UHGV virus genome: UHGV-0390922
Direction: 5' to 3' (one strand)
Length of the DNA stretch: 42,516 bases
Source: a virus
How positions within the stretch are numbered: the stretch's first letter is position 1; the number at the start of each line of letters is the position of its first letter. The translations under genes and the position numbers were made by a program. The notes beneath the pieces were generated by a model. That model was not told where the DNA came from. It ran no database searches and was given only the letters and a program-made list of their open reading frames with translations. Shown piece by piece: positions 3,836 through 42,516 of this stretch.

Positions 3836-3963
3836 TTCAGTTTCATTTTTTCATGCGTTATTCTCCTTTGTATGGGTCCCTGCTTCGGCGGGGGCTCTCT
3901 TTTTGTCAACATATTGTGGATAATGTGTGGATAAATACAAGATATTGATTGGAGGTGAGCCTG

Positions 3964-5754: not shown

Positions 5755-7134
5755 ATGAAATTTTCAAAAATGCTGACAGCGATCACAGAGATATTGAATC
5801 AGAATTCCGACACGCAGATAGATGTATGCCTGACTTCTCAAATGGCCTCTGCGATTGAGTTATGGACAGCCATGTACGAGAATCATGCTCCCTGGGTAGA
5901 CCGGGAAACAGTCAAGAGCGCACAGATACCGGCAGCTATCGCCTCAGAGATTGCAAGATTGGTGACATTGGAGATGCAGTCGGAGATAACCGGCGGCGCG
6001 GCGGCTGAATATCTGAACCAGGAGTACCAGAAAAAGGTGCTGGCTGATCTGCGGCGCTATGTGGAATACGGGTGCGCAAAGGGCGGCCTGATTCTTAAAC
6101 CGTATATGACTAAAACAGGGCTTGCAATCCAGTATGTGCAGGCAGACAGCTTTTTCCCGCTGTCGTTCGATGATTCGGGCCGGATCATGCAATGCGTGTT
6201 TACGGAACAGTTCCGAAAAGGAAAGAAGATATATACCCGGCTGGAAGTACATACGCTGCAGAATGATGTAATCCACATTACAAACAGGGCTTTCGTGGCT
6301 ACCAACGATTACAGCCTGGGAACAGAGCTCGAGGTCAGCAGCGTGGATCGCTGGTCTGAATTGGTGCCGGAGATATCGCTTGCGGGATCGGACAGGCTCC
6401 TGTTTGGGTATTTCAAGGTACCTATGGCAAATGCGGAGGACACAGACAGCCCGTTGGGGGTATCGGTATATTCCAGAGCAGACGAGCTGGTAGCGGAAGC
6501 GGACCGGAGGTACTCAAATATCTGCTGGGAGTATGAGGGCACGCAGCTTGCGGTTCATATTGCTGAGAGTATGCTGAAATACAACAAGGACAGGGATAAG
6601 TTTGAATATCCGGGAGGAAAAAAACGATTATATCGGGAGTTGAACTACGAGACAGGAGCCACAGACAAGCCGCTTATTGATACATTTTCTCCCGGAATTC
6701 GAGATACCGCCCTGTTTAACGGATTCAATGCCCAGCTGCGGCTGATTGAGTTTGTCTGCAATCTGGCATATGGCACCCTGTCAGATCCCCAGAATGTGGA
6801 TAAGACGGCCACAGAGATCAAGGTCAGCAAACAGCGGTCCTATACATTCGTATCTGACACGCAGATGGCTTTACAGCGAGCTCTGGAAGATCTGGTGTAC
6901 GCAATGAACTTCTGGGCGGTGCTGTATGGCCTGATCCCTCCGGGAAATGATTATCAGGTATCCTTTGTTTGGGATGACAGTATCATCGTGGATGCGGAAA
7001 CGGAGCGGCAGACAGATCGGCAGGATGTGGCTATGGGCGTAATGTCATTGGCTGAGTACCGCAGTAAGTGGTACGGGGAGACGCTGGAAGAGGCGGCAAA
7101 AAATCTGCCGGAACCAGCATTGACAGAGGAGTGA
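5755..7134 (+). CDS. portal protein
   Basis: About 460 aa, immediately downstream of TerL. Size and position fit an SPP1-like portal. Confidence 0.65.
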   Translation: MKFSKMLTAITEILNQNSDTQIDVCLTSQMASAIELWTAMYENHAPWVDRETVKSAQIPAAIASEIARLVTLEMQSEITGGAAAEYLNQEYQKKVLADLRRYVEYGCAKGGLILKPYMTKTGLAIQYVQADSFFPLSFDDSGRIMQCVFTEQFRKGKKIYTRLEVHTLQNDVIHITNRAFVATNDYSLGTELEVSSVDRWSELVPEISLAGSDRLLFGYFKVPMANAEDTDSPLGVSVYSRADELVAEADRRYSNICWEYEGTQLAVHIAESMLKYNKDRDKFEYPGGKKRLYRELNYETGATDKPLIDTFSPGIRDTALFNGFNAQLRLIEFVCNLAYGTLSDPQNVDKTATEIKVSKQRSYTFVSDTQMALQRALEDLVYAMNFWAVLYGLIPPGNDYQVSFVWDDSIIVDAETERQTDRQDVAMGVMSLAEYRSKWYGETLEEAAKNLPEPALTEE

Positions 7135-20795: not shown

Positions 20796-21728
20796 GTGGA
20801 GTGTATAATAAAGAATACAGGTGCGGCTTTAGACATCCGTGGATTGACGGCTAAGCCAGGGTATGTAAAAAAGGGCAAAACTTTTATTGGACAGGGCAGC
20901 GATGAAGAACAGATAGGCACCATGCCTATCATTGATGCCGCTGATCATGTCTTGACAATTAACGGGGAGTATCAGTCGGCAGCAGGCTACTATGCCGCAG
21001 GCAGCAGGATTGTGCAAAACATTCCGACCATGGGACAGCAATATATAATTCCTAGCGGCGAGCAGCAGACAGTAGAGACAAAGGATAAATATATGATAGA
21101 AGATGTAGTCATAGCAGGGCTACCAAATCTAAATGCCTTTAATATAAAAAAGGGGGCAGTTATAAAACTTGGTGACTACACAATTATCGGAGCTTATGAA
21201 GGGTATGAGAACAACGATCCTATGGTTCCATATTATAATGGCGTATTTGCTCCTGGCCAATCGATAAACTCTTTTCCTGCATTTGGAAGAAAAGCCGGAG
21301 AATATTATGTGGGAGATGTGACGTTCGGACGCGATAATCTGCATCTTGAAAATCCGCTGGATACACGTTATGTAACAACGGCAATCGTTTTTAACAGGCC
21401 ATTGAATTTTGACGAAATCAATGAGATTGAATTGCGGTATTCTCTGGATAATGCAACAGGTGGATGTTCGGTTCTGGCAGCGACAGGATATGAAACGGAG
21501 TATATTTATAGAAGGGCTGATAGTGGCTCTGGAAAAACTTATCACGAAGGACTTGGAACTTACTGGCAGCGTGAAATACCAGACACAAATGGCAATGTCA
21601 GCAACCGTACGCTTAATGTGGCATCAGTTACAGGAAGCAGGTACCTATACATATCGCTTAGTATGCGTACTACGTCAAGTATAGCGATTGCCAATCTGAC
21701 ATTACGAGAGTTGAAGTGTAAAAAGTAA
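20796..21728 (+). CDS. tail fibre / receptor-binding protein (paralogue B with extra C-terminal domain)
   Basis: N-terminal 140 aa is paralogous to 20378..20782. An additional ~170-aa C-terminal domain follows. Confidence 0.4.
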   Translation: MECIIKNTGAALDIRGLTAKPGYVKKGKTFIGQGSDEEQIGTMPIIDAADHVLTINGEYQSAAGYYAAGSRIVQNIPTMGQQYIIPSGEQQTVETKDKYMIEDVVIAGLPNLNAFNIKKGAVIKLGDYTIIGAYEGYENNDPMVPYYNGVFAPGQSINSFPAFGRKAGEYYVGDVTFGRDNLHLENPLDTRYVTTAIVFNRPLNFDEINEIELRYSLDNATGGCSVLAATGYETEYIYRRADSGSGKTYHEGLGTYWQREIPDTNGNVSNRTLNVASVTGSRYLYISLSMRTTSSIAIANLTLRELKCKK

Positions 21729-24071: not shown

Positions 24072-24134
24072 GATACCTGAAAATGATTTTTGTCCGGTTT
24101 TGTGCCGGGCTTTTTTATTTGGAGGCAAAGACAT

Positions 24135-24926
24135 ATGGAAAACGCAGTAAAGAAACTCATTGATCAGGCCGCCCATTGGGATGGCTATCTGGAAAAGAAA
24201 AGCAACGCCCAGCTGGATGATTTTACGGCCAATGCCGGCAGCGGCAATTTCACTTGCTTTGCCAGGGACTATAAGACACATACCGGTCAGAACCTGCAGG
24301 CCCAGCCCTGGTGTGCCATGTTCGTATCAGAGGTATTTGTGCAGGCATTTGGGCTGGAGGCGGCTAAGAAACTTCTGGGCGGCAGCCTGTACCATTATTG
24401 CCCCACAGGGGTCAACCAGTTTAAAAAGGCAGGCCGGTGGGCCGCGGTGCCGGAGCCTGGGGCAGTGATCTTTTTTACCAACGGCCAGAGAGCCTATCAT
24501 ACAGGGATCGTTACAGAGGTGACGGCAACGCGGATCAAGACCATTGAGGGTAATACGTCCGGTGCATCCGGTGTGATTGAAAACGGCGGCGGGGTGTGCC
24601 GGAAGGCTTACAGCCGGTCTTATGGGAAAATTCTTGGCTACGGGCTGCCGGACTGGTCGATTGTCAGCCAATCAGAATACGTATTAGGCTGGCACCATGA
24701 CAGTAACGGATGGTGGTACGCAGACACGTCCCACACCTATTATAAGTCCTGCTGGCAGGTGATTAACCATCACAAGTATTATTTTAACCAGGATGGCTAC
24801 GCATTGACAGACTGGCATCAGATCGATGGGAAGTGGTATTATTTTGAGTCGGCGGCAGGCCACCCGTTGGAATGTGCTTTGTATGTAACCGACGCCAGCG
24901 GGGTACAGGGGCCGGGTGAGTTTTAA
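24135..24926 (+). CDS. endolysin: CHAP/amidase_5-like Cys-His peptidase plus CW_binding_1 repeats
   Basis: Catalytic Cys in QPWCAMFVSEVF and His in AYHTGIVTEV. C-terminal GWHHDSNGWWYAD / DGKWYYFESAAG choline-binding-type repeats. GGAGG RBS. Confidence 0.75.
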   Translation: MENAVKKLIDQAAHWDGYLEKKSNAQLDDFTANAGSGNFTCFARDYKTHTGQNLQAQPWCAMFVSEVFVQAFGLEAAKKLLGGSLYHYCPTGVNQFKKAGRWAAVPEPGAVIFFTNGQRAYHTGIVTEVTATRIKTIEGNTSGASGVIENGGGVCRKAYSRSYGKILGYGLPDWSIVSQSEYVLGWHHDSNGWWYADTSHTYYKSCWQVINHHKYYFNQDGYALTDWHQIDGKWYYFESAAGHPLECALYVTDASGVQGPGEF

Positions 24927-28026: not shown

Positions 28027-28947
28027 CTATTGTATCCACTCTCCGTTCTTATTGACTCTGTAACCATCGGGAGTGGTAGTATCTTCTAACATAGCTCCAT
28101 TGTGATCCATAAAATAATACGCATTGTTGATTAAATTCCACCCAGTTACCATTTCACCGTTTGACTTTAAGTAATACCATTTTCCTTCAACTTTCTTCCA
28201 ACCTGTTATCATATTTCCTTCAGTATCAAATAGATACCACTTGTCTTGGATATATGCCCATTGTGACGTTGCCATTAAATTATTACTTAATCTAAGGTGC
28301 CAATTATTATTTTTGTGTTCCCATTGCCCTTCGTATATATGGGGGCCTTTTATAATTAGACCATTATCCCAAATTGCAGACGATGAACTAGAAGAACTGT
28401 TGTATTCTGGTTCAGAATATCCAGAATAAACAGTTGGGATAATTCGGATTTTATTTGAATCTATCCAGCAGAATCCATTGGGGTTTGTATCATAATCAAT
28501 GATAACAGAAACATAGCATTGTCCCTCTTCGCCGTATCTATTTGATGGAGTTCCTGCTATTGCTGATTTAAAATCCATACGTCCATTCAATCCAGATGGG
28601 CTATCATAAATACCTACTTTTATTGATATCCCATCTGGATCAGGAAGGCAATTACGAATATAGGAGCGGACGGAGTTTTTTGTGTTAGCAACAGACATAG
28701 AAATTCCATCATTTTCAAGGGTCTGTAATTTCTCTTTGCATATTTCAATAGTTTCATTAAACAGTATCTCTAAATGATCAGTTTCGGTTACATCTGTATA
28801 TTTACCAGACGGTACTTCTACTACATCTGCATTTGAAGGTGTCATTGTGCCTGCTCCAAAAGAAGATAAAGTAAAAAGCGCAGAAAACCCTACAGTTAAA
28901 ATCGTTTGGGAAAAGGTTTTTAAGTTACTTGTTTTCTTTATGCTCAT
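28027..28947 (-). CDS. secreted protein with C-terminal cell-wall-binding (CW_binding_1) repeats; moron
   Basis: Signal peptide MSIKKTSNLKTFSQTILTVGFSALFTLSSFGAG. C-terminal WYLFDTEGNMITGWKKVEGKWYYLKSNGEMVTGW repeats. GGGAGGA RBS. AT-rich. Sits between the repressor and int in the same orientation. Confidence 0.6.
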   Translation of the reverse strand: MSIKKTSNLKTFSQTILTVGFSALFTLSSFGAGTMTPSNADVVEVPSGKYTDVTETDHLEILFNETIEICKEKLQTLENDGISMSVANTKNSVRSYIRNCLPDPDGISIKVGIYDSPSGLNGRMDFKSAIAGTPSNRYGEEGQCYVSVIIDYDTNPNGFCWIDSNKIRIIPTVYSGYSEPEYNSSSSSSSAIWDNGLIIKGPHIYEGQWEHKNNNWHLRLSNNLMATSQWAYIQDKWYLFDTEGNMITGWKKVEGKWYYLKSNGEMVTGWNLINNAYYFMDHNGAMLEDTTTPDGYRVNKNGEWIQ

Positions 28948-28982
28948 AGTATCCTCCCTTTTATTAAAACGCCAGAGGCGAT

Positions 28983-30236
28983 TCAATATATTACTTTTCC
29001 GATTACTTTCCCCATACAAACCACATTGTCGTTTTCACGTATGGGAATATTTTTATATTCCTTATTTTTGGAAATAAGTTCCTTTTCGCCTAATTCTTTA
29101 ATAAAAGCATCCCCATTCACTATAAACACGCCAATATCTCCAACATACATTTCAGCATCCCTTTGTACCAGAGCAATGTCCTCATTGAAAAAATCAGGTT
29201 CCATGCTGTCACCATTCACATCAATAGCAAAATCAGCCGCTTCGTACTCTGGCAGAGCCGGAAGCTCTATTTCGTCCTCTGCCTCATTTCCAAGAATAAA
29301 GATCCCTGTTCCTGCGGATGCGCCGGCCCGGAAGTAAGGGAGGGCAATAATCTTGCTTTCCTGCTTAGGGTGAAATTCAACAATGGTGGCAGAAGTTGGG
29401 GACTGGATGTACTTATATCCTTGTTCTTCTTCCATTTTTTGAACTGCCAAAAGGCTGTTAGAGTAGTCAATAACCTTCTTTTTGTTAAGATCTGAAAGCT
29501 GTTCGTAGTTTTCCATGAGTTTTTTTGCCCCACCATAGAATTTAAGAAGATTTTGTGCCGGTTTAATGACTTTCTCGTCAGACGCTTCTTTGCCAGAGCA
29601 GGATTCATCAAATCTTGTCAATCCCATAAGATAAGCGGGAGTTGTTTCAAGAACATGAGCAAATTCAAATACCTTACTTTGAACTATGTCATTTGTCCCA
29701 TTTTCTATTTTAGCTATAGTTGTTTTACTTTTGTAGCCAAGCTTTACTGCAAGTTCTTCTTGTGTCATTCCAAGTTCTTCACGTCTTGCGCGTATTCTCT
29801 TTCCTATTTCTGGCATATTGGAATCTCCCGTCTCATGCAATTCAGATAGCTGTAGATACATCTTTTCGAAGACTTTTGATGCACGCTTCGATACTTCTGG
29901 CAGAGTCTGTTTTAAGGCTTCTTGTTCTTCAGCTGTCAAGTCATAATTATTATTTTGTAATTTTTTTAATGCAGAATTAAAAGGACAGGTAGTAGGTGTT
30001 TCATTAAAATTGATTGTTTTTGCTCGTTCCATAGGAACGTCTGCACCCATAAGCCATGCTTCATTAACATTTAACGCTTGCGCTAAGAGAAAAATATTAT
30101 TCTGTTTTGGCTCATACCGGCCAGAAAGGTATGAACTTAGAGCACCTTTGTTTATGCCAGTTTTTTCAACGACATCGGCTTGTCGTAATCCTCTAATAGT
30201 CATCCCTTCTTTAAGCCTATCAGCTAGTGTCTTCAT
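28983..30236 (-). CDS. CI-like repressor: two XRE-type HTH domains plus S24 (LexA-like) peptidase
   Basis: Two HTH segments (LRQADVVEKTGINKGALSSYLSG and MTQEELAVKLGYKSKTTIAKIENG). C-terminal GDSMEP...K peptidase S24 motif. GGAGGT RBS. Confidence 0.8.
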   Translation of the reverse strand: MKTLADRLKEGMTIRGLRQADVVEKTGINKGALSSYLSGRYEPKQNNIFLLAQALNVNEAWLMGADVPMERAKTINFNETPTTCPFNSALKKLQNNNYDLTAEEQEALKQTLPEVSKRASKVFEKMYLQLSELHETGDSNMPEIGKRIRARREELGMTQEELAVKLGYKSKTTIAKIENGTNDIVQSKVFEFAHVLETTPAYLMGLTRFDESCSGKEASDEKVIKPAQNLLKFYGGAKKLMENYEQLSDLNKKKVIDYSNSLLAVQKMEEEQGYKYIQSPTSATIVEFHPKQESKIIALPYFRAGASAGTGIFILGNEAEDEIELPALPEYEAADFAIDVNGDSMEPDFFNEDIALVQRDAEMYVGDIGVFIVNGDAFIKELGEKELISKNKEYKNIPIRENDNVVCMGKVIGKVIY

Positions 30237-32333: not shown

Positions 32334-32792
32334 ATGACAATGACAGTAACATTTAACAGCTTCGATGAGATGGTGGACTTTGCAAAAAACCTGGCAGGAC
32401 AGGGACACGAATCCGTGAAACAGCCGACCTTTGTCCAGGAACCCGCACAGCCGGCGGCACCGATGGTCCCGACAACTCCAGTAACGTCTGCCCCAGCAGC
32501 ACCTGCTGCGCCCGCACCTTTCCCAACAGCACCAGCGGCTCCGGCAGCGATTCCCACAACGCCAGTGCCGCCAGCTCCCGCAGCGACGGTTCCTACGGCT
32601 GTACCGACATCCACCCACACCTATACACCGGATGATCTGGCGAAAGCAGCCATGCTGCTGATGGATTCCGGTAAACAGCAGGAACTGATCGCGCTTCTGG
32701 GACAGTTCGGCGCTGCAGCGATCCCGGAACTGCGGCCGGAGCAGTACGGGGCATTTGCGACAGCGCTTCGCGGAATGGGGGCGCAGATCTGA
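32334..32792 (+). CDS. hypothetical protein with central Pro/Ala-rich linker
   Basis: N- and C-terminal globular segments joined by a PAAPA/PTTPV repeat tract. Confidence 0.4.
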   Translation: MTMTVTFNSFDEMVDFAKNLAGQGHESVKQPTFVQEPAQPAAPMVPTTPVTSAPAAPAAPAPFPTAPAAPAAIPTTPVPPAPAATVPTAVPTSTHTYTPDDLAKAAMLLMDSGKQQELIALLGQFGAAAIPELRPEQYGAFATALRGMGAQI

Positions 32793-33991
32793 TGGGACAC
32801 GCAGAGAGAAAACATTCCCTTCTCAGCCCGTCTGGGGCGTACCAGTGGATGGCCTGCACGCCGAGCGCCATGCTGGCAAGGCAATTCCCGGATACCGGAT
32901 CGCCGGCGGCGGCTGAGGGGACGCTGGCCCATGAGCTGGCGGAACTGAAGATCCGTAACTATGCTCACACCGTCGAGTTTGGAAAGAGGAAACTTACAGC
33001 TGCCATAAAAAAGCTTAAGGAAAATGAACTCTGGGACGACGAGATGATGCGCTACACGGATGATTACCTGGATTACATCAAGGCCATTGCCCTGAAATTC
33101 CCCGCTTCCCCCCATGTGGATATTGAACGGAGGGTGTCCCTGGACAGGTACATACCGCACCTTCCGGATGAGGGTGAGGCCTCTGGGTCTGCGGACTGTA
33201 TCCTGGTTGGGAACGGGATTATCCATGTGATTGATTTTAAATATGGGAAAAGCCCGGACGGCCGCGTAAGCGCGGAATGGAACCCGCAAATGCTGCTGTA
33301 TGCGCTGGGTGCGTATGAAGCCTACCGGGTCCTGTACCGGATCGAAACCGTCCGTATGAGCATCGTACAGCCCCGGCTTCCAGACGGGCTCTCTGAGTGG
33401 GAGTGCTCCCTGGATGAGCTGCTGCAGTTTGGGGAGTATGTAAAGGAACGGGCTGCGCTGGCGATCAAAGGGGAAGGGGAGTTCAAGCCAGCCCCAAAAA
33501 CCTGTAGGTACTGCCGTGCAAGAGGGGAGTGCAAGGCCCGCGCAGAAAAGAACGTGGAACTGGCATTTTTAACCGGGACAGATCCCACCCTTATTTCCGA
33601 CACGGAGATGGGGGATTATCTGAGGAAAGGCAGGGACGTGGCCCGCTGGCTGTCGGATATCCAGGAGGCGGCGCTTAAAAAGTGCCTGGCCGGAAAGATG
33701 GTCCCGGGATGGAAGGCAGTGGAGGGCAGGAGCACCCGGGTATGGACCGACGTGGATGAGGCATTTGGTATTCTCGAGTCCAGAGGGGTACCCCAGGAGA
33801 TCCTGTGGGAGAGAAGGCCGCTTACCGTAGCCCAGGCGGAAAAGGTACTGGGGAAAAAGGAGTTTGCCGAGAAGGCAGAAGACTGTGTTGTAAAGAAACC
33901 GGGAAATCCGGCGTTAGTGGAGGAGTCCGATAAACGGCCGGCAATCACAAACAAAGTAAGCGCCGCTGAGGCGTTCAAGGAGGAATGCTGA
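32792..33991 (+). CDS. PD-(D/E)xK nuclease, DUF2800 / Cas4-like
   Basis: N-terminal ERKHSLLSPSGAYQWMACTPS and C-terminal CRYC...GEC cysteine cluster. Conserved partner of DUF2815 and PolA in phage replication modules. Confidence 0.7.
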   Translation: MGHAERKHSLLSPSGAYQWMACTPSAMLARQFPDTGSPAAAEGTLAHELAELKIRNYAHTVEFGKRKLTAAIKKLKENELWDDEMMRYTDDYLDYIKAIALKFPASPHVDIERRVSLDRYIPHLPDEGEASGSADCILVGNGIIHVIDFKYGKSPDGRVSAEWNPQMLLYALGAYEAYRVLYRIETVRMSIVQPRLPDGLSEWECSLDELLQFGEYVKERAALAIKGEGEFKPAPKTCRYCRARGECKARAEKNVELAFLTGTDPTLISDTEMGDYLRKGRDVARWLSDIQEAALKKCLAGKMVPGWKAVEGRSTRVWTDVDEAFGILESRGVPQEILWERRPLTVAQAEKVLGKKEFAEKAEDCVVKKPGNPALVEESDKRPAITNKVSAAEAFKEEC

Positions 33992-34102
33992 TGTGTGAAA
34001 TGATTTGGCGCAGGTTTGAACTGACTACACAAAATGAACAGGAAAAAAAGGAACTGGAAAGGATCCTGGATGAGAAAAACCTTTCCAGAAAGGAACTTGC
34101 GG

Positions 34103-34402
34103 CTATATTGTTTGGTCTTCGCGTTCAACCCGGATTTTCTCGGAAAGATTTTGGTATTTAAAGGCATAATGCCCCAGAGCATCTTTCAAGAACTTTACGG
34201 GAATATCGTGGTAAATGCCAACTAACATACGCGGATTTTCTTTCCAGATATATAAGCTGCATTTCCCGGAAACAGACTGAATACCGGAGATTTCAAATTC
34301 ATAGCCGTTATCCAACCTCCGGTAAATGATAGATTCCCGATCCAATCTCCGTACTATATACGGATTGCCAAGAGAAGATACAAGTTTTTGCAATAGTGAC
34401 AT
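34103..34402 (-). CDS. hypothetical protein, antisense-oriented insert with its own promoter
   Basis: ATG at 34402 with AAAGGAGGG RBS. - strand TTGATA-17-TACAAT promoter at about 34410..34450. AT-rich island between GC-rich neighbours. Confidence 0.45.
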   Translation of the reverse strand: MSLLQKLVSSLGNPYIVRRLDRESIIYRRLDNGYEFEISGIQSVSGKCSLYIWKENPRMLVGIYHDIPVKFLKDALGHYAFKYQNLSEKIRVEREDQTI

Positions 34403-34478
34403 GGTAAAAACCCTCCTTTGAATTTTAGCACCATTGTAAATTGATTCTGAGAGGATATCAACAGAAAGGAAGAATAAC

Positions 34479-35168
34479 ATGAATGAATTAACAAACGTAA
34501 CAACCGGAGAAGTAAGACTGGGCTATGTGCATCTGTTCAAGCCCTATGCGGCCATGCAGGGGCAGGAGGAGAAATACAGCTGCACGATCCTAGTACCAAA
34601 GACGGACACAGACACCATGGCCCGGATCAACGCTGCCATTGAGGCGGCCAAGCAGAGGGGGATCTCTGACAAATGGGGCGGTGTATGCCCGCCGATCGTA
34701 CCAACCCCGGTCTATGATGGCGACGGTGTAAGGCCGTCTGACGGTATGGCCTTTGGCCCGGAGTGTAAAGGGCACTGGGTATTCACAGCCAGCGCAAAGG
34801 CCGATTACCCGCCGGAGATCGTGGACCGCATGGCAAACCCGATTATCAACCAGTCTGAGGTTTACAGCGGGATGTACGGTCGTGTGAACGTAACCTTCTT
34901 CCCGTATGCGTTCGGCGGCAAGAAGGGGATCGGCTGCGGCCTGGGTCCGGTCCAGAAACTGCGTGACGGGGAGGCTCTGGGCGGAAGTGCCCCGACAGCT
35001 GCACAGGCCTTCGGGACCCCGCAGCCCCAGACAGCGGCCCCTCAGTACGTGGCCTCTGCGGGAGCACAGAATCCCGCAGAGGCACAGGCACCGTGGGGGC
35101 AGCCGGCACAGGCACCGTGGGGGCAGCCGGCAGGCGGGGTCAACCCGCTGACAGGTATGCCGTATTAA
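34479..35168 (+). CDS. DUF2815 ssDNA-binding-like protein
   Basis: N-terminal VRLGYVHLFKPYA signature. C-terminal repeated AQAPWGQPA tail. Confidence 0.65.
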   Translation: MNELTNVTTGEVRLGYVHLFKPYAAMQGQEEKYSCTILVPKTDTDTMARINAAIEAAKQRGISDKWGGVCPPIVPTPVYDGDGVRPSDGMAFGPECKGHWVFTASAKADYPPEIVDRMANPIINQSEVYSGMYGRVNVTFFPYAFGGKKGIGCGLGPVQKLRDGEALGGSAPTAAQAFGTPQPQTAAPQYVASAGAQNPAEAQAPWGQPAQAPWGQPAGGVNPLTGMPY

Positions 35169-35217
35169 ACAGAAAGGTATGAGGGCCGTAAGGCCCTCAT
35201 TATGACAGGAGGAAGAT

Positions 35218-37206
35218 ATGACAGAACACCATTTGAGCATAGACATTGAAACGCGCAGCAGCGTGGATATCGGCAAGGCAGGGCTCTATAAATACGCCCA
35301 GTCCCCTGATTTCAGCGTCCTCCTGTTCGCTTACCAGATCGATACGTTTCCCGTAGAGATTATAGACCTTTCCTGCGGGGAAACGATACCGGAACGCATC
35401 AAGCGGATGCTGGACGATCCGGGAGTGGTCAAGCACGCTTACAATGCGGCATTTGAGTGGTACTGTCTGAACCGGGCAGGCTACAAAACACCACTGGGAC
35501 AGTGGCGCTGTACCATGGTCCATGGACTGTACTGCGGGTATACAGCCGGGCTGGACGCCACCGGAAAGGCCATCGGACTGCCGCAGGATAAGCAGAAGCT
35601 TTCCATCGGCAAGGCGCTGATCCGGTACTTCTGCGTCCCCTGCAAGCCCACCAGGGCCAACGGGAACCGCGCCTGGAACCAGCCGCACCACGCACCGGAG
35701 AAATGGCAGCTGTTCAAGGAATACTGCAAGCAGGATGTTGTGACAGAACATGAGATCTTAAAACGGCTGGACCAGTTCCCCATGCCGGAGGCGGAACAGC
35801 ACCAGTGGAGGCTGGACGTCATTATGAACGCATACGGGGTCCGTGTGGACACAAAGCTGATCGAGGGCGCCCTGTATATGAACGATATCAGTACCCGGGA
35901 GCTGACGGAGGAAGCCGTCCGGATCACCGGTCTGGGGAACCCGAACAGCGGGGCCCAGCTGGTACCATGGTTAAATGAGAAGTGCGGCAGGGAGCAGTTC
36001 GCGGATATCCAGAAAGCCACCGTGGCAGAAGCCCTGGAGAGCCGGGAGGAATATCCGGAGGACGTACAGCGTATGCTTGAGATCCGGCAGCAATTGGGAA
36101 AGACATCCATTAAGAAGTATACCGCCATGGACACAGCAAAAGGGGAGGGAGACCGGGTGCGGGGCCTGACCCAGTATTACGGGGCCAACCGGACCGGACG
36201 CTGGGCCGGGCGTCTGGTGCAGATGCAGAACCTTCCCAGGAACTATCTCAAGACCTTGGATTATGCCAGGGGATTGGTGAAGCGGAAGGATTATGCAGGG
36301 CTCCGCCTGCTGTACGGAAACGTGCCCGACACGCTGTCCCAGCTGATCCGCACAGCGTTCATCCCTTCGGAGGGGCACAAGTTCGTTGTATCGGATTTCT
36401 CTGCTATTGAGGCCCGTGTGATTGCCTGGCTGGCGGGGGAACAGTGGGTCAATGAGGTATTTGCCACCCATGGGAAGATCTATGAGGCAACCGCGGCACA
36501 GATGTTTGGCGTGCCGGTGGACCGGATCGCAAAGGGCAACCCGGAATACTCCCTCCGCCAGAAAGGAAAGGTGGCAACGCTGGCCCTTGGCTACCAGGGA
36601 GGGACTTCGGCCCTGATCGCCATGGGGGCCCTGAACATGGGCCTTACAGAGGACGAACTCCCGGACATCGTAACCCGGTGGAGGCAGGCCAACCCGCGGA
36701 TCCGGGACCTGTGGTATGCAGTGGAGAACGCGGCCCTTGCGGTGATGCAGACCGCGCAGCCCCAGGCTATCTATGGCCTGATCTTCGCCCTTGAGGGGGA
36801 CATCCTGTACGGCCAGACCTTCCTCACCGTGCGCCTGCCAAGCGGCAGGAAATTGTTCTACCCGAAACCGTTTTTAAAAGAGAACCCGTTCGGGAAACTG
36901 GCGCTTCATTATTACACAGTGGGCCAGCAGACAAGGAAGTGGGAGGTGGCGTCCACCTACGGCGGGAAACTGACGGAGAACATTGTGCAGGCGATTGCGC
37001 GGGACTGCCTGGCAGTTACGCTGGAACGGATCGCAGAAAAGGGCCTGCAGGTGGTATTCCATGTGCACGATGAGGTGATCATTGACGCCCCTATGAAGAC
37101 CACAGTGGAAGAGATCTGTGATCTGATGGCAGAACCGATTGACTGGGCTCCGGGCCTGATCCTAAAGGGCGCAGGCTTTGAGAGTAGTTATTACATGAAG
37201 GATTAA
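35218..37206 (+). CDS. family A DNA polymerase with 3'-5' exonuclease domain
   Basis: Exo I DIETRS. Motif A DFSAIEARV. Motif B RQKGKVATLALGYQGG. Motif C HVHDEVI. Confidence 0.9.
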   Translation: MTEHHLSIDIETRSSVDIGKAGLYKYAQSPDFSVLLFAYQIDTFPVEIIDLSCGETIPERIKRMLDDPGVVKHAYNAAFEWYCLNRAGYKTPLGQWRCTMVHGLYCGYTAGLDATGKAIGLPQDKQKLSIGKALIRYFCVPCKPTRANGNRAWNQPHHAPEKWQLFKEYCKQDVVTEHEILKRLDQFPMPEAEQHQWRLDVIMNAYGVRVDTKLIEGALYMNDISTRELTEEAVRITGLGNPNSGAQLVPWLNEKCGREQFADIQKATVAEALESREEYPEDVQRMLEIRQQLGKTSIKKYTAMDTAKGEGDRVRGLTQYYGANRTGRWAGRLVQMQNLPRNYLKTLDYARGLVKRKDYAGLRLLYGNVPDTLSQLIRTAFIPSEGHKFVVSDFSAIEARVIAWLAGEQWVNEVFATHGKIYEATAAQMFGVPVDRIAKGNPEYSLRQKGKVATLALGYQGGTSALIAMGALNMGLTEDELPDIVTRWRQANPRIRDLWYAVENAALAVMQTAQPQAIYGLIFALEGDILYGQTFLTVRLPSGRKLFYPKPFLKENPFGKLALHYYTVGQQTRKWEVASTYGGKLTENIVQAIARDCLAVTLERIAEKGLQVVFHVHDEVIIDAPMKTTVEEICDLMAEPIDWAPGLILKGAGFESSYYMKD

Positions 37207-37222
37207 GAGGAGGAAAGGGAAG

Positions 37223-39637
37223 ATGCAGTATAACAGGATGCTGCGGATCAGCACCGCGGGGAGCAGGAAGGCCACACACTGGCCTAAAAGTGAGATCCTG
37301 TGGTCCGAGTTCGTGGAAAAACTGAAAACACCGGTCCGGGGCGTGGAAACCCTGGAAGAGTACCTGGCCCTCCCAAAGTCCAGGCAGGACGAGTTAAAGG
37401 ATGTAGGCGGCTTTGTGGGAGGCACCTTTGCCGGGGACCGCAGGAAGGCCGCCAACGTGGAAGGTCGTGACCTGGTCACTCTGGATCTCGACAATATCCC
37501 CGCCGGACAGACGGAGGGTATCCTGCGCCGCGTGGAAGGGCTGGGCTGTGCAGCAGCCGTCTACAGTACCAGAAAGCACGCAGGCTATGCTCCGAGGCTC
37601 CGTGTGGTGGTCCCCCTGGACCGGACGGGTACGGCAGATGAGTATGAACCGGCGGCACGGAAACTGGCGTTTTTAATCGGGATTGGCTTTTGTGACCCGA
37701 CCACCTTTGAGGCCTCCAGGCTGATGTACTGGGCCAGCTGCTGTGCGGACAGCCAGTATGTGTGTGAATCCTATGACCGGCCGTTCTGCAGCCTGGACGG
37801 GCTCCTGTCCATGTATGGGGATTGGCATGATATCGCCCAGTGGCCCCAGGTGCCGGGCAGTGAAGCAGTAGAACGGCGCCGGCTGGCAAAGCAGGAGGAT
37901 CCAACCCGGAAACGGGGGGTGATCGGAGCCTTCTGCCGCACCTACAGCATCACGCAGGCCATGGAGCACTTTATCCCTGGAATGTACGAGGAGACCAGCA
38001 TCCCGGGGAGATACACCTATACAGGGGGCTCCACAGTGGGCGGCGCCGTAGTCTATGACGGGGATCTGTTTTTATATTCCCACCATGCAACCGACCCGTG
38101 CAGCGGGCAGCTGGTCAATGCGTTCGATCTGGTGCGCCTGCATATGTATGGGGACCGCGACAGCGAGGCAAAGGAGGGTACGCCGGCCAGCAAGATGCCG
38201 TCTTTCATGGCTATGAGCCGGCTGGCGCTGGAGGATAAGCAGGTGTCCGACCTGATATCCGTGGAACGCCTTGAGAAGGCGAAGCAGACGTTCCAGGCAC
38301 CGGAGAACCCGCAGGCAGACAGCGGGCCGGACTATGACCTGTCCTGGCTGCCGAAGCTTACAAAGGACAGCCAGGGAAGATATGAGAAGACGATCAATAA
38401 TGCCGTGGTCGTACTGGAGAATGACCCGCTGTTAAAAGGCCGGATCGTGACGGATGAATTTGCCAGCTGCGGCATGATCCTGGGACGTGTCCCGTGGGAT
38501 CAGAGAGAAGAAAAACGGCGCTGGAAGGATGTGGATGACGCCGGGTTCTACCGCTATGTGGAAGTATTCTATGGCCTTACGGGCCGTGAGAAACTGGACA
38601 ATGCGCTGATGCTGGTAAGCGCCCAGAACCGGATCAATGACGTAAAGCAGTATCTGCAGGGCCTTACATGGGACGGAGTGAAACGCCTGGACACGCTGCT
38701 GTCAGAATACCTGGGGGCGGAGGATACGGCCTACACCCGGGCCGTGATGCGCAAGTCCCTGTGCGCGGCGGTAGGCCGGGCAGTGACCGGAGGGATCAAG
38801 TATGATTATATGCCGATCTTTACGGGGCCGCAGGGCATTGGGAAGAGCACGTTCCTGCGGATCCTCGGGAAGGACTGGTTCAGCGATTCCCTGACAACGT
38901 TTGAGGGGAAGGAGGCGGCGGAGCTGATCCAGGGGACATGGATCAACGAGATCGGGGAGCTGAGTGCCTTCACAAAGCAGGAGACCCAGGTCATTAAACA
39001 GTTTTTAAGCAAGACGGATGATATCTACCGGGCAGCATACGGCCGGAGGACGGACAAGTACCCCAGACGGTGCGTGTTCTTCGGTACATCCAATGACAGC
39101 GAGTTTTTAAAAGACGCCACGGGGAACCGGCGTTTCTGGCCGGTGGATGTGGGCGTCCATCCCGCGAAAAAGTCCGTGTGGAACCAGCTGCCGCTTGAGG
39201 TAGACCAGATCTGGGCGGAGGCCTATCTGTACTGGACCATGGGGGAACCCCTGTATCTGCCAAATGAGATCGAAACCCTGGCGAAGGACCAGCAGGAAAA
39301 ACACAGGGAATCATCGGGAAAGGAAGGCATTATCCTGGACTTTCTGGAACGGGAGATCCCTTCAAACTGGGAAACCCTGGATCTTCAGAAACGGAGGATC
39401 TTCTGGAATGGAAACATGAGGCTGGAGGATGGAGTAGAGCTGATTCCCAGGGAAAAGGTTTGTGCAGCGGAAATCTGGGTGGAGTGTTTCGGGAGTGAAC
39501 TGAAATACATGAAGCGGTCAGACAGCACAGAGATCAACAATATCCTGCTGTGCCTGAAAGGGTGGGAGCGGATTAAAACCCCGCGGAGATTTGGGACTTA
39601 TGGACAACAGAGAGGATTTGAACGAGTGACTACATAG
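37223..39637 (+). CDS. primase-helicase (VirE / P4-type, P-loop NTPase)
   Basis: 804 aa. Walker A GPQGIGKST. VirE-like C-terminal region. N-terminal primase-like domain. Confidence 0.75.
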   Translation: MQYNRMLRISTAGSRKATHWPKSEILWSEFVEKLKTPVRGVETLEEYLALPKSRQDELKDVGGFVGGTFAGDRRKAANVEGRDLVTLDLDNIPAGQTEGILRRVEGLGCAAAVYSTRKHAGYAPRLRVVVPLDRTGTADEYEPAARKLAFLIGIGFCDPTTFEASRLMYWASCCADSQYVCESYDRPFCSLDGLLSMYGDWHDIAQWPQVPGSEAVERRRLAKQEDPTRKRGVIGAFCRTYSITQAMEHFIPGMYEETSIPGRYTYTGGSTVGGAVVYDGDLFLYSHHATDPCSGQLVNAFDLVRLHMYGDRDSEAKEGTPASKMPSFMAMSRLALEDKQVSDLISVERLEKAKQTFQAPENPQADSGPDYDLSWLPKLTKDSQGRYEKTINNAVVVLENDPLLKGRIVTDEFASCGMILGRVPWDQREEKRRWKDVDDAGFYRYVEVFYGLTGREKLDNALMLVSAQNRINDVKQYLQGLTWDGVKRLDTLLSEYLGAEDTAYTRAVMRKSLCAAVGRAVTGGIKYDYMPIFTGPQGIGKSTFLRILGKDWFSDSLTTFEGKEAAELIQGTWINEIGELSAFTKQETQVIKQFLSKTDDIYRAAYGRRTDKYPRRCVFFGTSNDSEFLKDATGNRRFWPVDVGVHPAKKSVWNQLPLEVDQIWAEAYLYWTMGEPLYLPNEIETLAKDQQEKHRESSGKEGIILDFLEREIPSNWETLDLQKRRIFWNGNMRLEDGVELIPREKVCAAEIWVECFGSELKYMKRSDSTEINNILLCLKGWERIKTPRRFGTYGQQRGFERVTT

Positions 39638-39870
39638 GCCTGACTACAAAGGAGATTTGTTTGTAGTCATGTAGAAAGTGAAAACTACAGAACTACAACT
39701 TGTAGTCAGTGTTTGTAGTCGGCGCAAAGCCTTATAAACAAAAGGAATTATACTATATGACTACATTGACTACAAACTTCTATATAGAGTTAAAAAATAT
39801 ATAAAAATATAGTACATACGCATACATACACACACATAAATAAAACACACACATACACGTGTACGTGAGG
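39627..39870. repeat. putative origin: TGACTACA iterons, AT-rich stretch, CA-rich tract
   Basis: At least 8 copies of TGACTACA(A) or its inverse TTGTAGTCA between 39627 and 39780. AT-rich aaaaatatataaaaatata. (CA/CATA)n tract 39813..39867 ending in ACACGTGTACGTG. Confidence 0.5.
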
Positions 39871-39884
39871 AAGGTAGTCAAAGC

Positions 39885-40223
39885 ATGAGAGAAAAGGACA
39901 TTGAGAAGGTCCTGGTGGCCGAAGTAAAGAAACTGGGCGGCCGGGCCTATAAATGGACAAGCCCCGGCAACGATGGTGTGCCGGACCGGATTGTGATCTT
40001 CCCGGGCCGGGCCCCGGTATTTGTGGAACTGAAAACGGATACAGGGAAACTGAGTGCCCTGCAGAAGGTCCAGATTGGCCGGCTGAGGGAACTGGGACAG
40101 AAGGTATATGTGGCCTACGGGATTGAGGGAGTCCGAACGTTCTTCCTGGCATCGGGATTCGAGGAAACCAGCAGGGAATTAGGCGCCCGATACGGATTGG
40201 GGAGGACGAGGAATGGAATTTAA
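39885..40223 (+). CDS. VRR-NUC domain nuclease
   Basis: GVPDRIVIFPG...VELKTDTGKLSALQKVQIGRLRELG matches VRR-NUC. Confidence 0.75.
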   Translation: MREKDIEKVLVAEVKKLGGRAYKWTSPGNDGVPDRIVIFPGRAPVFVELKTDTGKLSALQKVQIGRLRELGQKVYVAYGIEGVRTFFLASGFEETSRELGARYGLGRTRNGI

Positions 40224-41601
40224 GCCGCATGCCTACCAGCAGCACTGCATTGACAAGATCATCGAGATCAAGAAGCTGGGGCTTTTTCTGGATATGGGAC
40301 TCGGCAAGACGGTTACAACTCTGACCGCCGTGAAGGAGCTTAAATACAACCGGTTCCTGGTGCGCAAGGTGCTGGTGATCGCACCCAAGAAGGTGGCAGA
40401 AGGAACCTGGACAAGGGAGGCGGCCAAATGGGGTCACACGCAGATGTTGAGAGTATCGCCGGTACTGGGGAGCCAGACAAAGCGGATCCGGGCGCTGAAC
40501 ACCCCGGCAGACCTGTACATCATCAACCGGGAGAATGTCTGCTGGCTGGTGGACTACTACCGGAACGCATGGCCCTTTGACATGGTTGTAGTGGATGAGA
40601 GCAGCAGCTTTAAGAGCCACAGCGCCAAGCGGTTTAAGGCCCTGGCGAGTGTGGGAGACCGCATCGACCGTATGGTGGAACTGACCGGGACCCCGTCGCC
40701 AAACGGACTTGAGGACCTGTGGAGCCAGATCTTCCTGCTGGATGGGGGAGAACGCCTGGGAAAGCGATATACCCAGTTTAGGGAGAGGTATTTCCAGCCG
40801 GATAAGAGAGGGGCGGACGGCATGGTGTACAGCTATGAGGCCAAGCCGGGAACGGAAGCAAGCATCCTGGAAAAGATCTCCGATATCTGTATCAGCATGA
40901 AGGCGGAGGACTATCTGCAGCTGCCGGATATCACCTATCACGAGATCCCGGTGGAGCTGGATTCAAAATCCCTGAAAGCCTACTGCGAACTGGAGCGGGA
41001 GATGGTGCTGCAGCTGCCGGAGGATGATGAAACGATCAGTGTTACCAGTGCGGCGGCTTTGAGCAACAAGCTCCTGCAGCTGGCAAACGGGGCCTTGTAT
41101 GGTGAGGACCGCCAGGTACATGAAGTACACAGCTGCAAGGTCGAGGCCTTTTTGGAGCTGATCGAATCCCTGCAGGGAAAACCGGCCTTGGTGTTCTACA
41201 ACTACCAGCATGACCGGACACGGATACTAAAGGCCCTGGAGAAGTCGGGGCTGGCTGTAAGGGAGCTTAAGACTACACAGGATGAGGATGACTGGAATGC
41301 AGGAAAGATCCAGATCCTTCTTACCCATCCGGCCAGCAGTGCCTACGGGCTGAACCTGCAGCAGGGAGGGAACCATGTGATCTGGTTCGGCCTTACATGG
41401 AACTATGAATTATATACCCAGGCCAACAAACGCCTGCACCGCCAGGGACAGAAGGAGAAGGTGATCATCCACCACCTGGTATGCAGCGGGACCCGGGACA
41501 CGGATGTCATGCAGGCCCTGCAGCGTAAGGATGACGTACAGAGCTGGGTCATGGAATCGCTGAAAGCAAGGATCCGTAAGATCCGGGAGGGAACCTTATG
41601 A
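40213..41601 (+). CDS. SNF2-family helicase
   Basis: Motif I DMGLGKT. Motif II VVDESSSFKS. LTGTPSPNGLEDLW. C-terminal helicase motifs QANKRLHRQGQ. Confidence 0.85.
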   Translation: MEFKPHAYQQHCIDKIIEIKKLGLFLDMGLGKTVTTLTAVKELKYNRFLVRKVLVIAPKKVAEGTWTREAAKWGHTQMLRVSPVLGSQTKRIRALNTPADLYIINRENVCWLVDYYRNAWPFDMVVVDESSSFKSHSAKRFKALASVGDRIDRMVELTGTPSPNGLEDLWSQIFLLDGGERLGKRYTQFRERYFQPDKRGADGMVYSYEAKPGTEASILEKISDICISMKAEDYLQLPDITYHEIPVELDSKSLKAYCELEREMVLQLPEDDETISVTSAAALSNKLLQLANGALYGEDRQVHEVHSCKVEAFLELIESLQGKPALVFYNYQHDRTRILKALEKSGLAVRELKTTQDEDDWNAGKIQILLTHPASSAYGLNLQQGGNHVIWFGLTWNYELYTQANKRLHRQGQKEKVIIHHLVCSGTRDTDVMQALQRKDDVQSWVMESLKARIRKIREGTL

Positions 41602-41798
41602 CAGACAAACAGAAGAAAACCATTATGATGCGTACACTGGGCCAGACCTGCTGCCAGGGATGCGGGAAGGTGATCCATCCGGAAACGGATGACCTGTCCC
41701 GTGTTGAATACGTGAAGACCAAAAGAGGAGACCACTGGTTTTTCCATACGGCCTGTGCGGGAAATGTGTGGGGCAGAAAGATCAGCTGGGAAAAGTAA
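41598..41798 (+). CDS. small zinc-ribbon protein
   Basis: CCQGCGK...HTACAG. Confidence 0.35.
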   Translation: MTDKQKKTIMMRTLGQTCCQGCGKVIHPETDDLSRVEYVKTKRGDHWFFHTACAGNVWGRKISWEK

Positions 41799-41808
41799 AG
41801 GGGGACCG

Positions 41809-41952
41809 ATGCAGATAAAATACATACGCAATGAAGGCCGCCCGGGAATAAGAGGATTTTATTATTACGGGACAAATGTGTACTACAAAAATTTGAGTGC
41901 GACAGGAAAGATTATTGCACTGATAAGGCCGAGGAAAGGAAATGAGTCATGA
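41809..41952 (+). CDS. hypothetical small protein (47 aa)
   Basis: GGGGGA RBS. Stop overlaps the next start. Confidence 0.25.
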   Translation: MQIKYIRNEGRPGIRGFYYYGTNVYYKNLSATGKIIALIRPRKGNES

Positions 41953-42377
41953 AGAGATTAACACAGAAAGATGAGCAGGGAAATTGGTGCTTGGAGGGAG
42001 TGTCATGGGAACAGCTGCATGAAGGACAGGTAATCACCAAGCCTTTACGGGAGCGGCTGTATGGAGCCCTCTGGAAGTTGATGGAGTATGAGGATACCGG
42101 TCTGGCACCGGAAGAAATCAAGGCGTTAAACGCGAACAGAAAAACATCGGAGCACCGCTGGATCCCAGTGGATGAGCGGCTGCCGGAAGATGATAATTAT
42201 ATTCTACTATCGTTCAGCAATTTCTCTCTTCCGCTGATTGGAAGATATGAGGCTGATAATGATGGTGGAGGAGCGTTCTATCTGGGCGATAATGATGAGG
42301 GAGATACCTGTCTATCAGAGGATCTGTATGTTAATGCCTGGCAGCCGCTGCCGGAGCCATACCGGCCAGAGGAGTGA
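41949..42377 (+). CDS. DUF551-like phage protein
   Basis: WIPVDERLPEDDNYILLSF...VNAWQPLPEPY matches the DUF551 signature. Confidence 0.45.
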   Translation: MKRLTQKDEQGNWCLEGVSWEQLHEGQVITKPLRERLYGALWKLMEYEDTGLAPEEIKALNANRKTSEHRWIPVDERLPEDDNYILLSFSNFSLPLIGRYEADNDGGGAFYLGDNDEGDTCLSEDLYVNAWQPLPEPYRPEE

Positions 42378-42392
42378 GTTTCTCCCAAGGAA

Positions 42393-42516
42393 TTACTTGG
42401 TATCCTTGGGAGCACAGAGGGCCTGATGTGCAGCCATAGTGGCCAGAGAGTCACCAAGCTGCATAAAGATGGAACTGATCAGGGCGATCTCTTCCGGAGA
42501 CTTGCCATCCGCGATG
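42393..42516 (-). CDS. partial small ORF running off the window end (C-terminal 41 codons)
   Basis: Open - strand frame ...IADGKSPEEIALISSIFMQLGDSLATMAAHQALCAPKDTK*. Continues in frame into positions 47..1 if the ends are joined. Confidence 0.3.
   Translation of the reverse strand, partial: IADGKSPEEIALISSIFMQLGDSLATMAAHQALCAPKDTK

Follow-up and report, generated by a model that had tools for sequence, protein, structure and literature searches.

The replicon of the staphylococcal pathogenicity islands (SaPIs), said to have been described by Ubeda and colleagues in 2007, consists of Pri and Rep, or of a fused PriRep, together with an origin (ori). Rep acts both as the initiator and as a self-loading helicase, with a C-terminal winged helix that reads penta- or hexanucleotide iterons; ori, located immediately downstream of rep, carries 6–12 of these iterons in opposite orientations. 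They surround an AT-rich centre, no fewer than two per side, and the two sides point opposite ways (Qiao et al. 2022, PMC9371898). Here we describe a comparable arrangement in the virus genome UHGV-0390922, analysed over its whole stretch of 42,516 nucleotides (hereafter the window), in which an iteron cluster (39627–39880) begins inside the 3′ end of a primase-helicase gene (37223–39637, + strand). Sequence comparison strongly supports this element as the replication origin of a temperate phage of a gut bacterium, read by the protein whose gene has its 3′ end there, a reading to which we give a probability of roughly 0.8. The best description of the element would be a SaPI-type origin that has additional conserved modules and recurs across a large Bacillota phage family.

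The 804-residue initiator is composed of an archaeo-eukaryotic primase (AEP) domain (residues ~1–300), a helical module (residues 300–357), a superfamily 3 (SF3) helicase (residues 377–729) and a winged helix (residues 730–804). It matches the VapE-like domain of Pfam (3.7e-79) and is assigned to DNA helicase/primase by PHROG. Residues 377–729 match SaPI1 Rep (PDB 7PDS, chain 19–378) with an E-value of 5.5e-78 in a phmmer search against the PDB. The model of residues 690–804 (pLDDT 90.6) contains a predicted recognition helix (residues 765–777) and a wing (residues 781–801), and its best fold matches are six 7PDS chains (TMq 0.68–0.73, probability 1.0), followed by the winged helices of forkhead, RepE and ORC proteins. 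The model of residues 1–400 (pLDDT 88) shows the AEP core with the helices at 300–357 placed after it, and the AEP domain of cyanophage S-2L PrimPol (6ZP9, probability 1.0) is its best fold match.

The locus shares with SaPIs the SF3 self-loading helicase with a C-terminal winged helix, homologous both in sequence and in the fold of the C-terminal domain (TMq 0.72), the fused primase, as in PriRep5 of SaPI5, and an ori right 3′ of the gene, with short iterons in opposite orientation on either side of an AT-rich core. Unlike a SaPI, the window is a full temperate phage of Lachnospiraceae-type hosts, with its own family-A polymerase (PolA), single-stranded DNA-binding protein (SSB), DUF2800 nuclease, VRR-NUC and SNF2 proteins. 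Its iterons also differ: they are 8 bp long and strongly asymmetric (9 left, 1 right), and the first of them lies inside coding sequence. A second repeat set and an alternating purine-pyrimidine tract form further conserved modules which, to our knowledge, are undescribed for SaPI origins.

The α protein of satellite phage P4, with its ori and crr, offers a parallel to the reading of 8-bp iterons by a winged helix that is proposed for the window. This primase-helicase binds its origin through a winged-helix domain at the C-terminus, and its 8-bp iterons (TGTTCACC) occur in both orientations. Its primase domain is of the bacterial type and it needs crr as a second, distant site; P4 α was absent from the PDB sequence and fold matches of the window protein. 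For the Enterococcus phage Abitsa (Efquatrovirus), a putative origin was proposed by the same logic in a 2026 genome paper (PMC13517437). This phage differs from the window in being lytic and in belonging to a different group with different repeats, and the paper contains neither a comparative or co-variation analysis nor a second repeat set.

Iteron cluster and layout of the intergenic gap

The candidate origin fills the whole gap of 247 bp between the initiator gene and the next ORF (39885–40223, +), a VRR-NUC nuclease gene that forms its right-hand boundary. The iteron is the 8-bp word TGACTACA. Iterons 1 and 2 (39627–39648, +), exact copies starting at 39627 and 39641, are direct repeats 14 bp apart. 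The final codons of the primase gene fall within iteron 1, which ends at 39634, right before the TAG stop (39635–39637). Iteron 3 is exact and inverted (39662–39669, −), and is followed by a copy with two mismatches at 39670 (−), by two degenerate copies, each with two mismatches, at 39682–39697 (+; AAACTACA from 39682 and GAACTACA from 39690), and by two inverted copies at 39701–39721 (−), one exact (39701–39708) and one with a single mismatch (39714–39721, CGACTACA). A spacer element (GCAAAGCCTTATAAACAAAAGG, 39724–39745) separates this array from a tandem direct pair (TGACTACAT TGACTACA, 39758–39774, +) with a 9-bp period and exact copies at 39758 and 39767, which abuts the AT-rich block. 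The right flank carries an inverted iteron with one mismatch (TGACTACC, 39873–39880, −), positioned over the likely ribosome-binding site of the next gene.

An earlier note on this DNA had counted at least eight copies in both orientations, which is true when degenerate copies are included (6 exact and 2 with one mismatch); the end that it set, at 39870, leaves out the right-flank iteron. The cluster holds 6 of the 9 exact copies present in the 42.5-kb window, for which the expectation as a whole is 0.87. When one mismatch is allowed, 8 copies fall within 266 bp, whereas 2000 shuffles gave 0.23 on average and never more than 3. The three outlying exact copies, at 21104–21111 (−), 21173–21180 (+) and 34022–34029 (+), are all in coding sequence and look incidental; the first two form an inverted pair, 69 bp apart, within ORF 20796–21728.

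The GC content falls to 0.23 over 39750–39849, versus 0.5–0.6 on either side. The AT block itself (39775–39811) has 4 G/C in 37 bp (11% GC), starts with the family-conserved AACTT(T)CTATATA and constitutes a putative unwinding element. It is followed by the second repeat set, present here in its CATA(A) allele (39812–39842, +), with three units ~10 bp apart (CATA at 39815, 39825 and 39835); this set corresponds to the CATA tract of the earlier note and aligns with (G)CGTACATAA or NNGCCTAAT repeats in relatives. Next comes an alternating purine-pyrimidine tract (39845–39867), which contains the palindrome TACACGTGTA (39854–39863). Only two alternating runs of at least 14 nt exist in the window, at 39812–39838 (27 nt) and 39845–39867 (23 nt), the longest run in whole-window shuffles being 15.3 nt on average and 23 nt at most; the AT-rich stretch and the CA/CATA tract reported previously are real features.

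Searched at the nucleotide level against 50,697 phage records, the gap gave a single, irrelevant 52-nt match. The element is too divergent in DNA, and relatives were therefore reached via the primase protein. About 1,200 relatives were detected in all, and each scan comprised the best 80 matches: 80 IMG/VR contigs with 71–99% identical primases, which gave 61 distinct gaps, and a further set of 80 prophage loci from GTDB genomes, with primases 46–78% identical. The same gap layout was observed in ~140 relatives altogether. In all 61 distinct gaps, the lineage's own word overlaps or abuts the primase stop codon. An array of that word in mixed orientation follows, in patterns that vary by lineage (e.g., ++-++--++, ---+++++ or +------++). 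Then comes the conserved spacer, with a family consensus of ~GAAAACCNCATAAA(T/A)NC in the alignment of the 61 intergenic regions; it is kept across iteron classes and might be a host-factor site. The tandem direct pair, with its 9-bp spacing, occupies one and the same position in each of the 61 close relatives, and is succeeded by the conserved AT block (AACTTTCTATATA..AAAAATA), by two or three direct repeats 9–10 bp apart and by the alternating tract, which is often palindromic (ATACGCGTAT, TACACGTGTA, or (CG/TG)n up to 31 nt). Most lineages complete this layout with one or two inverted copies of the word, 93–111 nt right of the tandem pair. The earlier note had asked whether the repeats are missing from relatives with the same primase: every relative keeps repeats at this spot.

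The layout extends to the cultured phages phiFL4A of Enterococcus, phiCT453A of Clostridium, Pd_22F of Paenibacillus and Fontainebleau of Acutalibacter, each with its own word and likewise with an inverted right-hand copy; their primases are 42–53% identical, and their gaps measure 280–360 bp and contain no annotation. Two right-flank copies are present in many relatives, for example L038, L068, phiFL4A and phiCT453A. Prophages that share the pattern come from Lachnospiraceae, Oscillospiraceae, Paenibacillus, Clostridium and Fusobacterium, and the nearest hosts among the GTDB loci are Lachnospiraceae (Hominiventricola, Parablautia, Bariatricus and Muricomes). Some relatives (L010–L013, L021, L039, L048, L050, L072, L073 and L080) have an extra ORF of ~65–70 residues between the origin and VRR-NUC, ~270–480 nt past the primase stop. 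Its product has the conserved ending ...ELK.ARK.LGVKT(F/Y)HQ, and the origin layout is unaltered.

The alternation of purines and pyrimidines is kept in relatives though the sequence is not: in 53 of the 61, the longest run of the 8–10-kb locus lies in this region. These runs measure 13–31 nt (e.g., ACGCGTGCGTGCGTGCGCGCGCG in L052). In the window, the tract displays the long unbroken alternation with CG or CA/TG steps that characterizes Z-DNA-prone sequence. The tract may plausibly have a structural role, for instance by unstacking easily or by taking a left-handed form under supercoiling.

Co-variation of the repeats with the initiator

The words of the various lineages include GACTACA, AACTACA, GTCAACA, GTAAAC, GTTGCC, GTACCC, GTGAACA, CACCCAA and ACTACC, and all copies in a lineage switch jointly, the one at the stop codon included. 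The wing of the initiator carries a motif specific to the word: IKTPR with ACTACA, NKSVRR with GTAAAC, KSSxR with GTCAAC, NRSKRR with GTTGCC, and NKDKR with both GTACCC and CACCCAA. Ranking of the 804 primase columns by mutual information with the iteron class places columns 787 and 795, both from the wing, first and second, with column 769, from the recognition helix, in the top 10. The recognition helix and wing, predicted from the secondary structure of the C-terminal model, are encoded at 39515–39625 (+). The window primase differs from that of its relative L001 by 8 residues, 3 of which are in the wing (786, 787 and 792), and the tandem pair of L001 reads GACAACA versus GACTACA in the window. 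Distant relatives show the same class-specific trend in the wing, for example at the position preceding the conserved Q of G-x-Q-(R/K)-G-F. The iteron word co-varies with the initiator wing, a pattern that does not amount to proof of binding.

Two main alleles of the second repeat set were distinguished: 25 distinct loci carry NNCCT(A/G)A and 34 carry NNCAT(A/G)A, and the allele assorts independently of the iteron word. The allele is tracked by residue 323 of the initiator, within the motif AKEGTPx[N/S]K(L/M)PSF: Asn is found in 25 of 25 CCT loci and Ser, Ala or Val in 34 of 34 CAT loci. The window has a serine at this position (codon 38189–38191, +; motif AKEGTPxSK(M/L)PSF). The mutual information of residue 323 with the allele is 0.98 of 0.983 bits, the next of the 804 primase columns reaching 0.55, and on a tree built without residues 300–345 and 690–804 the allele and residue 323 change five times, always jointly. 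The codon lies 1.6 kb upstream of the second repeats, with the independently assorting wing and iterons in between; simple linkage is therefore a poor explanation. Among ~1,860 columns of SSB, PolA, VRR-NUC, SNF2 and DUF2800, none exceeds 0.74 bits with the allele. Residues 41, 60 and 272 of PolA (35218–37206) reach 0.71–0.74 bits, above any column of the other four proteins, a signal that may come from linkage or from a functional connection of the polymerase with the start site.

In the independent set of prophages and cultured phages, tandem CCT(A/G) words were found in 28 of 53 Asn loci versus 2 of 20 non-Asn loci (p = 0.001). Tandem words were required to have 8–11-nt spacing, a spacing-free C-x-T-R-A count being too noisy, and residue 323 was read from the alignment in distant relatives, half of which were missed by a strict regular expression. 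The automatic tandem-pair anchor misplaced distant loci, including L108, L133, L144, L146, L153 and L164, and the out-of-sample numbers are therefore conservative. By eye, nearly all correctly anchored Asn loci have (C/T)CTAA repeats. The Ser/Ala/Val loci L085, L089 and L151 carry CATA, the Gly loci L102 and L158 CTTAA, and the Ile and His loci CTATA. Relatives of the CCTAA type additionally have the words in inverted TTAGG...CCTAA groups, which would put one site on each strand.

A logic like the one proposed for the window operates in the IncQ plasmid RSF1010, in the oriV of which the helix-bundle of RepB′ gives sequence-specific priming at ssiA and ssiB, 40-nt inverted repeats (PMC8567376). 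The likeness to the proposed window origin is one of functional logic, namely initiator-bound iterons, an AT region opened by a helicase and separate, sequence-specific start sites in inverted orientation for an AEP-type primase with a helix-bundle domain. RSF1010 differs from the window in its separate RepC, RepA and RepB′ proteins, its 20-bp direct iterons and its ssi sites, which are 40-nt hairpins and not 9–10-bp direct repeats; the inverted orientation of these sites may be compared with the inverted TTAGG...CCTAA groups. In ORF904 of the Sulfolobus plasmid pRN1, a helix-bundle domain gives sequence-specific template recognition (PMC2965215, PMC13469122). The order of prim/pol (AEP), helical domain and SF3 helicase is the same as in the window protein, and ORF904 might by analogy serve as a model for reading of the second repeats by the region around residue 323. 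It is unlike the window protein in being archaeal, in its recognition word, GTG, and in giving no detectable sequence match, and the helical modules are equivalent by position only, the fold match covering the AEP core alone.

An alternative role for the second repeat set is suggested by analogy with the iteron plasmids (RepE, TrfA, pi), in which repeats of the unwinding element are bound sequence-specifically by the initiator as single-stranded DNA, on one strand (PMC4081077, PMC10602881). The iterons of these plasmids adjoin an AT-rich unwinding element, for which the window has a putative counterpart. Their initiators, unlike that of the window, have two winged helices without helicase or primase, the iterons are direct and 17–22 bp long, and DnaA boxes are usual. 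A classical iteron plasmid origin was rejected for the window on account of its 8-bp words in mixed orientation, its helicase-primase initiator and the lack of a DnaA box in the gap: no match to TTATCCACA with at most one mismatch was found in 39600–39900, the nearest being at 38530.

Proposed mechanism and competing explanations

From the repeats, the homologies and folds, the layout and the two co-variations, we infer the following course of binding, melting, priming and origin firing. The wing and the recognition helix would bind the 8-bp TGACTACA in the mixed array, in the tandem pair at the side of the AT block and in the inverted copy ~105 bp further right. Helicase hexamers would load on the two flanks, which face opposite ways, and open the 37-bp AT block, probably along with the adjoining, easily deformed purine-pyrimidine tract. 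The N-terminal half, around residue 323, would read the CATAA units spaced ~10 bp apart, and the second repeats could be either the place where the primase starts or repeats of the unwinding element that anchor single strands. PolA and SSB of the phage would then extend.

The part of this scheme that concerns residue 323 is the more tentative one. Direct reading of the second repeats by the region around this residue has, in our estimation, somewhat less than an even chance; we hold it there because the association is post hoc and the domain has no structural match. At the lower end of the same range stands the wider proposal that one initiator uses two recognition codes, the wing reading the iterons and the helical module after the AEP domain reading C-x-T-A-A words spaced 9–10 bp apart. 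Residue 323 would in that case set base x, with Asn specifying C, Ser, Ala or Val specifying A, and Gly specifying T. The conserved alternating purine-pyrimidine tract would join them as a third module, structural in kind, that aids the opening.

Several points weigh against the origin assignment or against its extension to a second code. The evidence is comparative throughout, and the cumulative GC/AT skew rises monotonically and is uninformative on the origin because nearly all genes point one way. In the window, the 9–10 iterons left of the AT block face one inverted copy with one mismatch on the right, so that the right flank has a single degenerate iteron versus the SaPI rule of at least two per side. 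Shared ancestry confounds and inflates the co-variation of word and wing, and the mapping of word to wing is not one-to-one in distant relatives. The link with residue 323 was found post hoc, the 804 columns having been scanned after the classes were set by eye, and its out-of-sample fit is partial: about half of the Asn loci are without a cleanly detected tandem CCT word, the Thr323 loci are mixed and one of them, L156, is an exception that carries CCTAA. Finally, the fold search of the N-terminal 400 residues hit the AEP core only, leaving the helical module with residue 323 unmatched to any solved DNA-binding domain, and the region could also hold a promoter of a type outside the model of the scan described below.

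Among the competing explanations, the one that survives best, though we consider it improbable, is a transcriptional control region with no role as an origin, in which the repeats would be operators of a regulator and the AT block the promoter of VRR-NUC and SNF2. The gap does lie between co-oriented genes, the right-flank repeat overlaps a ribosome-binding site and the conserved CTATATA..AAAAATA is loosely −10-like. A sigma-70-type promoter scan of the gap, however, found none, and its terminator-like matches correspond to the purine-pyrimidine palindrome on the minus strand. Moreover, the co-variation of the word is with the wing of the neighbouring initiator and not with a separate regulator, the first repeat is inside the primase coding sequence in every lineage, the layout agrees with the published SaPI ori, and the element is unchanged in the relatives that insert a small gene after it.

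Appreciably weaker is the view of the region as a structured RNA or single-stranded DNA element, with the inverted repeats as stems and the joint changes of the words as compensatory substitutions. The RNA fold of 39638–39884 has a z-score of −3.0 versus shuffles, with stems formed by inverted iterons. No Rfam 15 family matches, the best E-value being 0.31 (22 bits versus a gathering score of 90), and the words co-vary with protein residues. The direct tandem pair, which is unable to self-pair, also changes in step, and the copy number and orientation of the left array vary by lineage, so that no single structure is kept; the reading was dropped on the unlike orientation patterns.

Equally slight are the chances of a partition (centromere-like) or packaging (pac/cos) site: clustered short repeats in two orientations are known at parS/parC and cos, but the neighbourhood contains no gene of the ParA/ParB type, an integrase and a CI-type repressor are encoded by the phage, the relatives of which are found integrated in chromosomes, the terminase and portal genes are 35 kb off, and in every relative the element accompanies the primase-helicase gene.

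The origin assignment also bears on the earlier note, which had combined it with a CA tract that might be slippage-prone or form non-B DNA. The origin part is strongly supported by the homology to SaPI Rep, the kept layout and the co-variation of word and wing; the slippage is not supported. A hypermutable microsatellite or contingency locus that changes length by slippage is very hard to sustain in spite of the low-complexity composition and short (CA)4-5 runs, as Tandem Repeats Finder gives the CA-rich tract a period of 10 bp and not 2 (4.9 copies, 69% matches), the span between flanking anchors is 78 nt in all four near-identical contigs, which differ by substitutions only, and the tract aligns base for base with the second repeats and purine-pyrimidine tracts of relatives that are not CA-rich.

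Significance and other features of the window

The PolA/VapE-primase/VRR-NUC/SNF2 module is common in Bacillota phages and prophages, from gut Lachnospiraceae and Oscillospiraceae to Enterococcus, Clostridium, Clostridioides, Listeria and Paenibacillus. With a defined origin and a readable code of specificity, origins could be annotated across hundreds of genomes, and cross-activation or competition for initiators between co-resident phages or satellites could be predicted. One gene and ~250 bp could also make compact replicons for poorly tractable gut anaerobes. The pairing of residue 323 with the second repeats offers a one-residue, one-base hypothesis for the choice of start by AEP primase-helicases. 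If the two-code proposal were true, the origin would have built-in sites for sequence-specific priming or single-strand anchoring, ssi-like but in a SaPI-type replicon, and origin specificity would evolve by simple, predictable residue swaps.

The window encodes a temperate phage with terminase, portal, CHAP lysin, Rha, integrase and a CI-type HTH-S24 repressor. Its replication module is arranged in the order DUF2800 nuclease, Enc34-type SSB, family-A polymerase, VapE primase-helicase, gap, VRR-NUC and SNF2 helicase. The GC content is 0.54–0.585 in this module (32500–42516) versus 0.39–0.51 in the remainder (1–32500), which suggests that the module is of mosaic origin. Two perfect DnaA-box words (TTATCCACA), 11 bp apart on the minus strand at 3915–3934 (top strand TGTGGATAATGTGTGGATAA), lie in an intergenic region, between a terminator-like GC hairpin and the ORF that precedes the large terminase gene; a third copy is at 6795–6803. 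Choline-binding (cell-wall-binding) repeats occur in two proteins, encoded at 28027–29019 (−) and 24090–24926 (+). One of these is the CHAP lysin, and the other is a 330-residue ORF on the minus strand, beside the repressor, possibly a surface or exclusion protein expressed during lysogeny.

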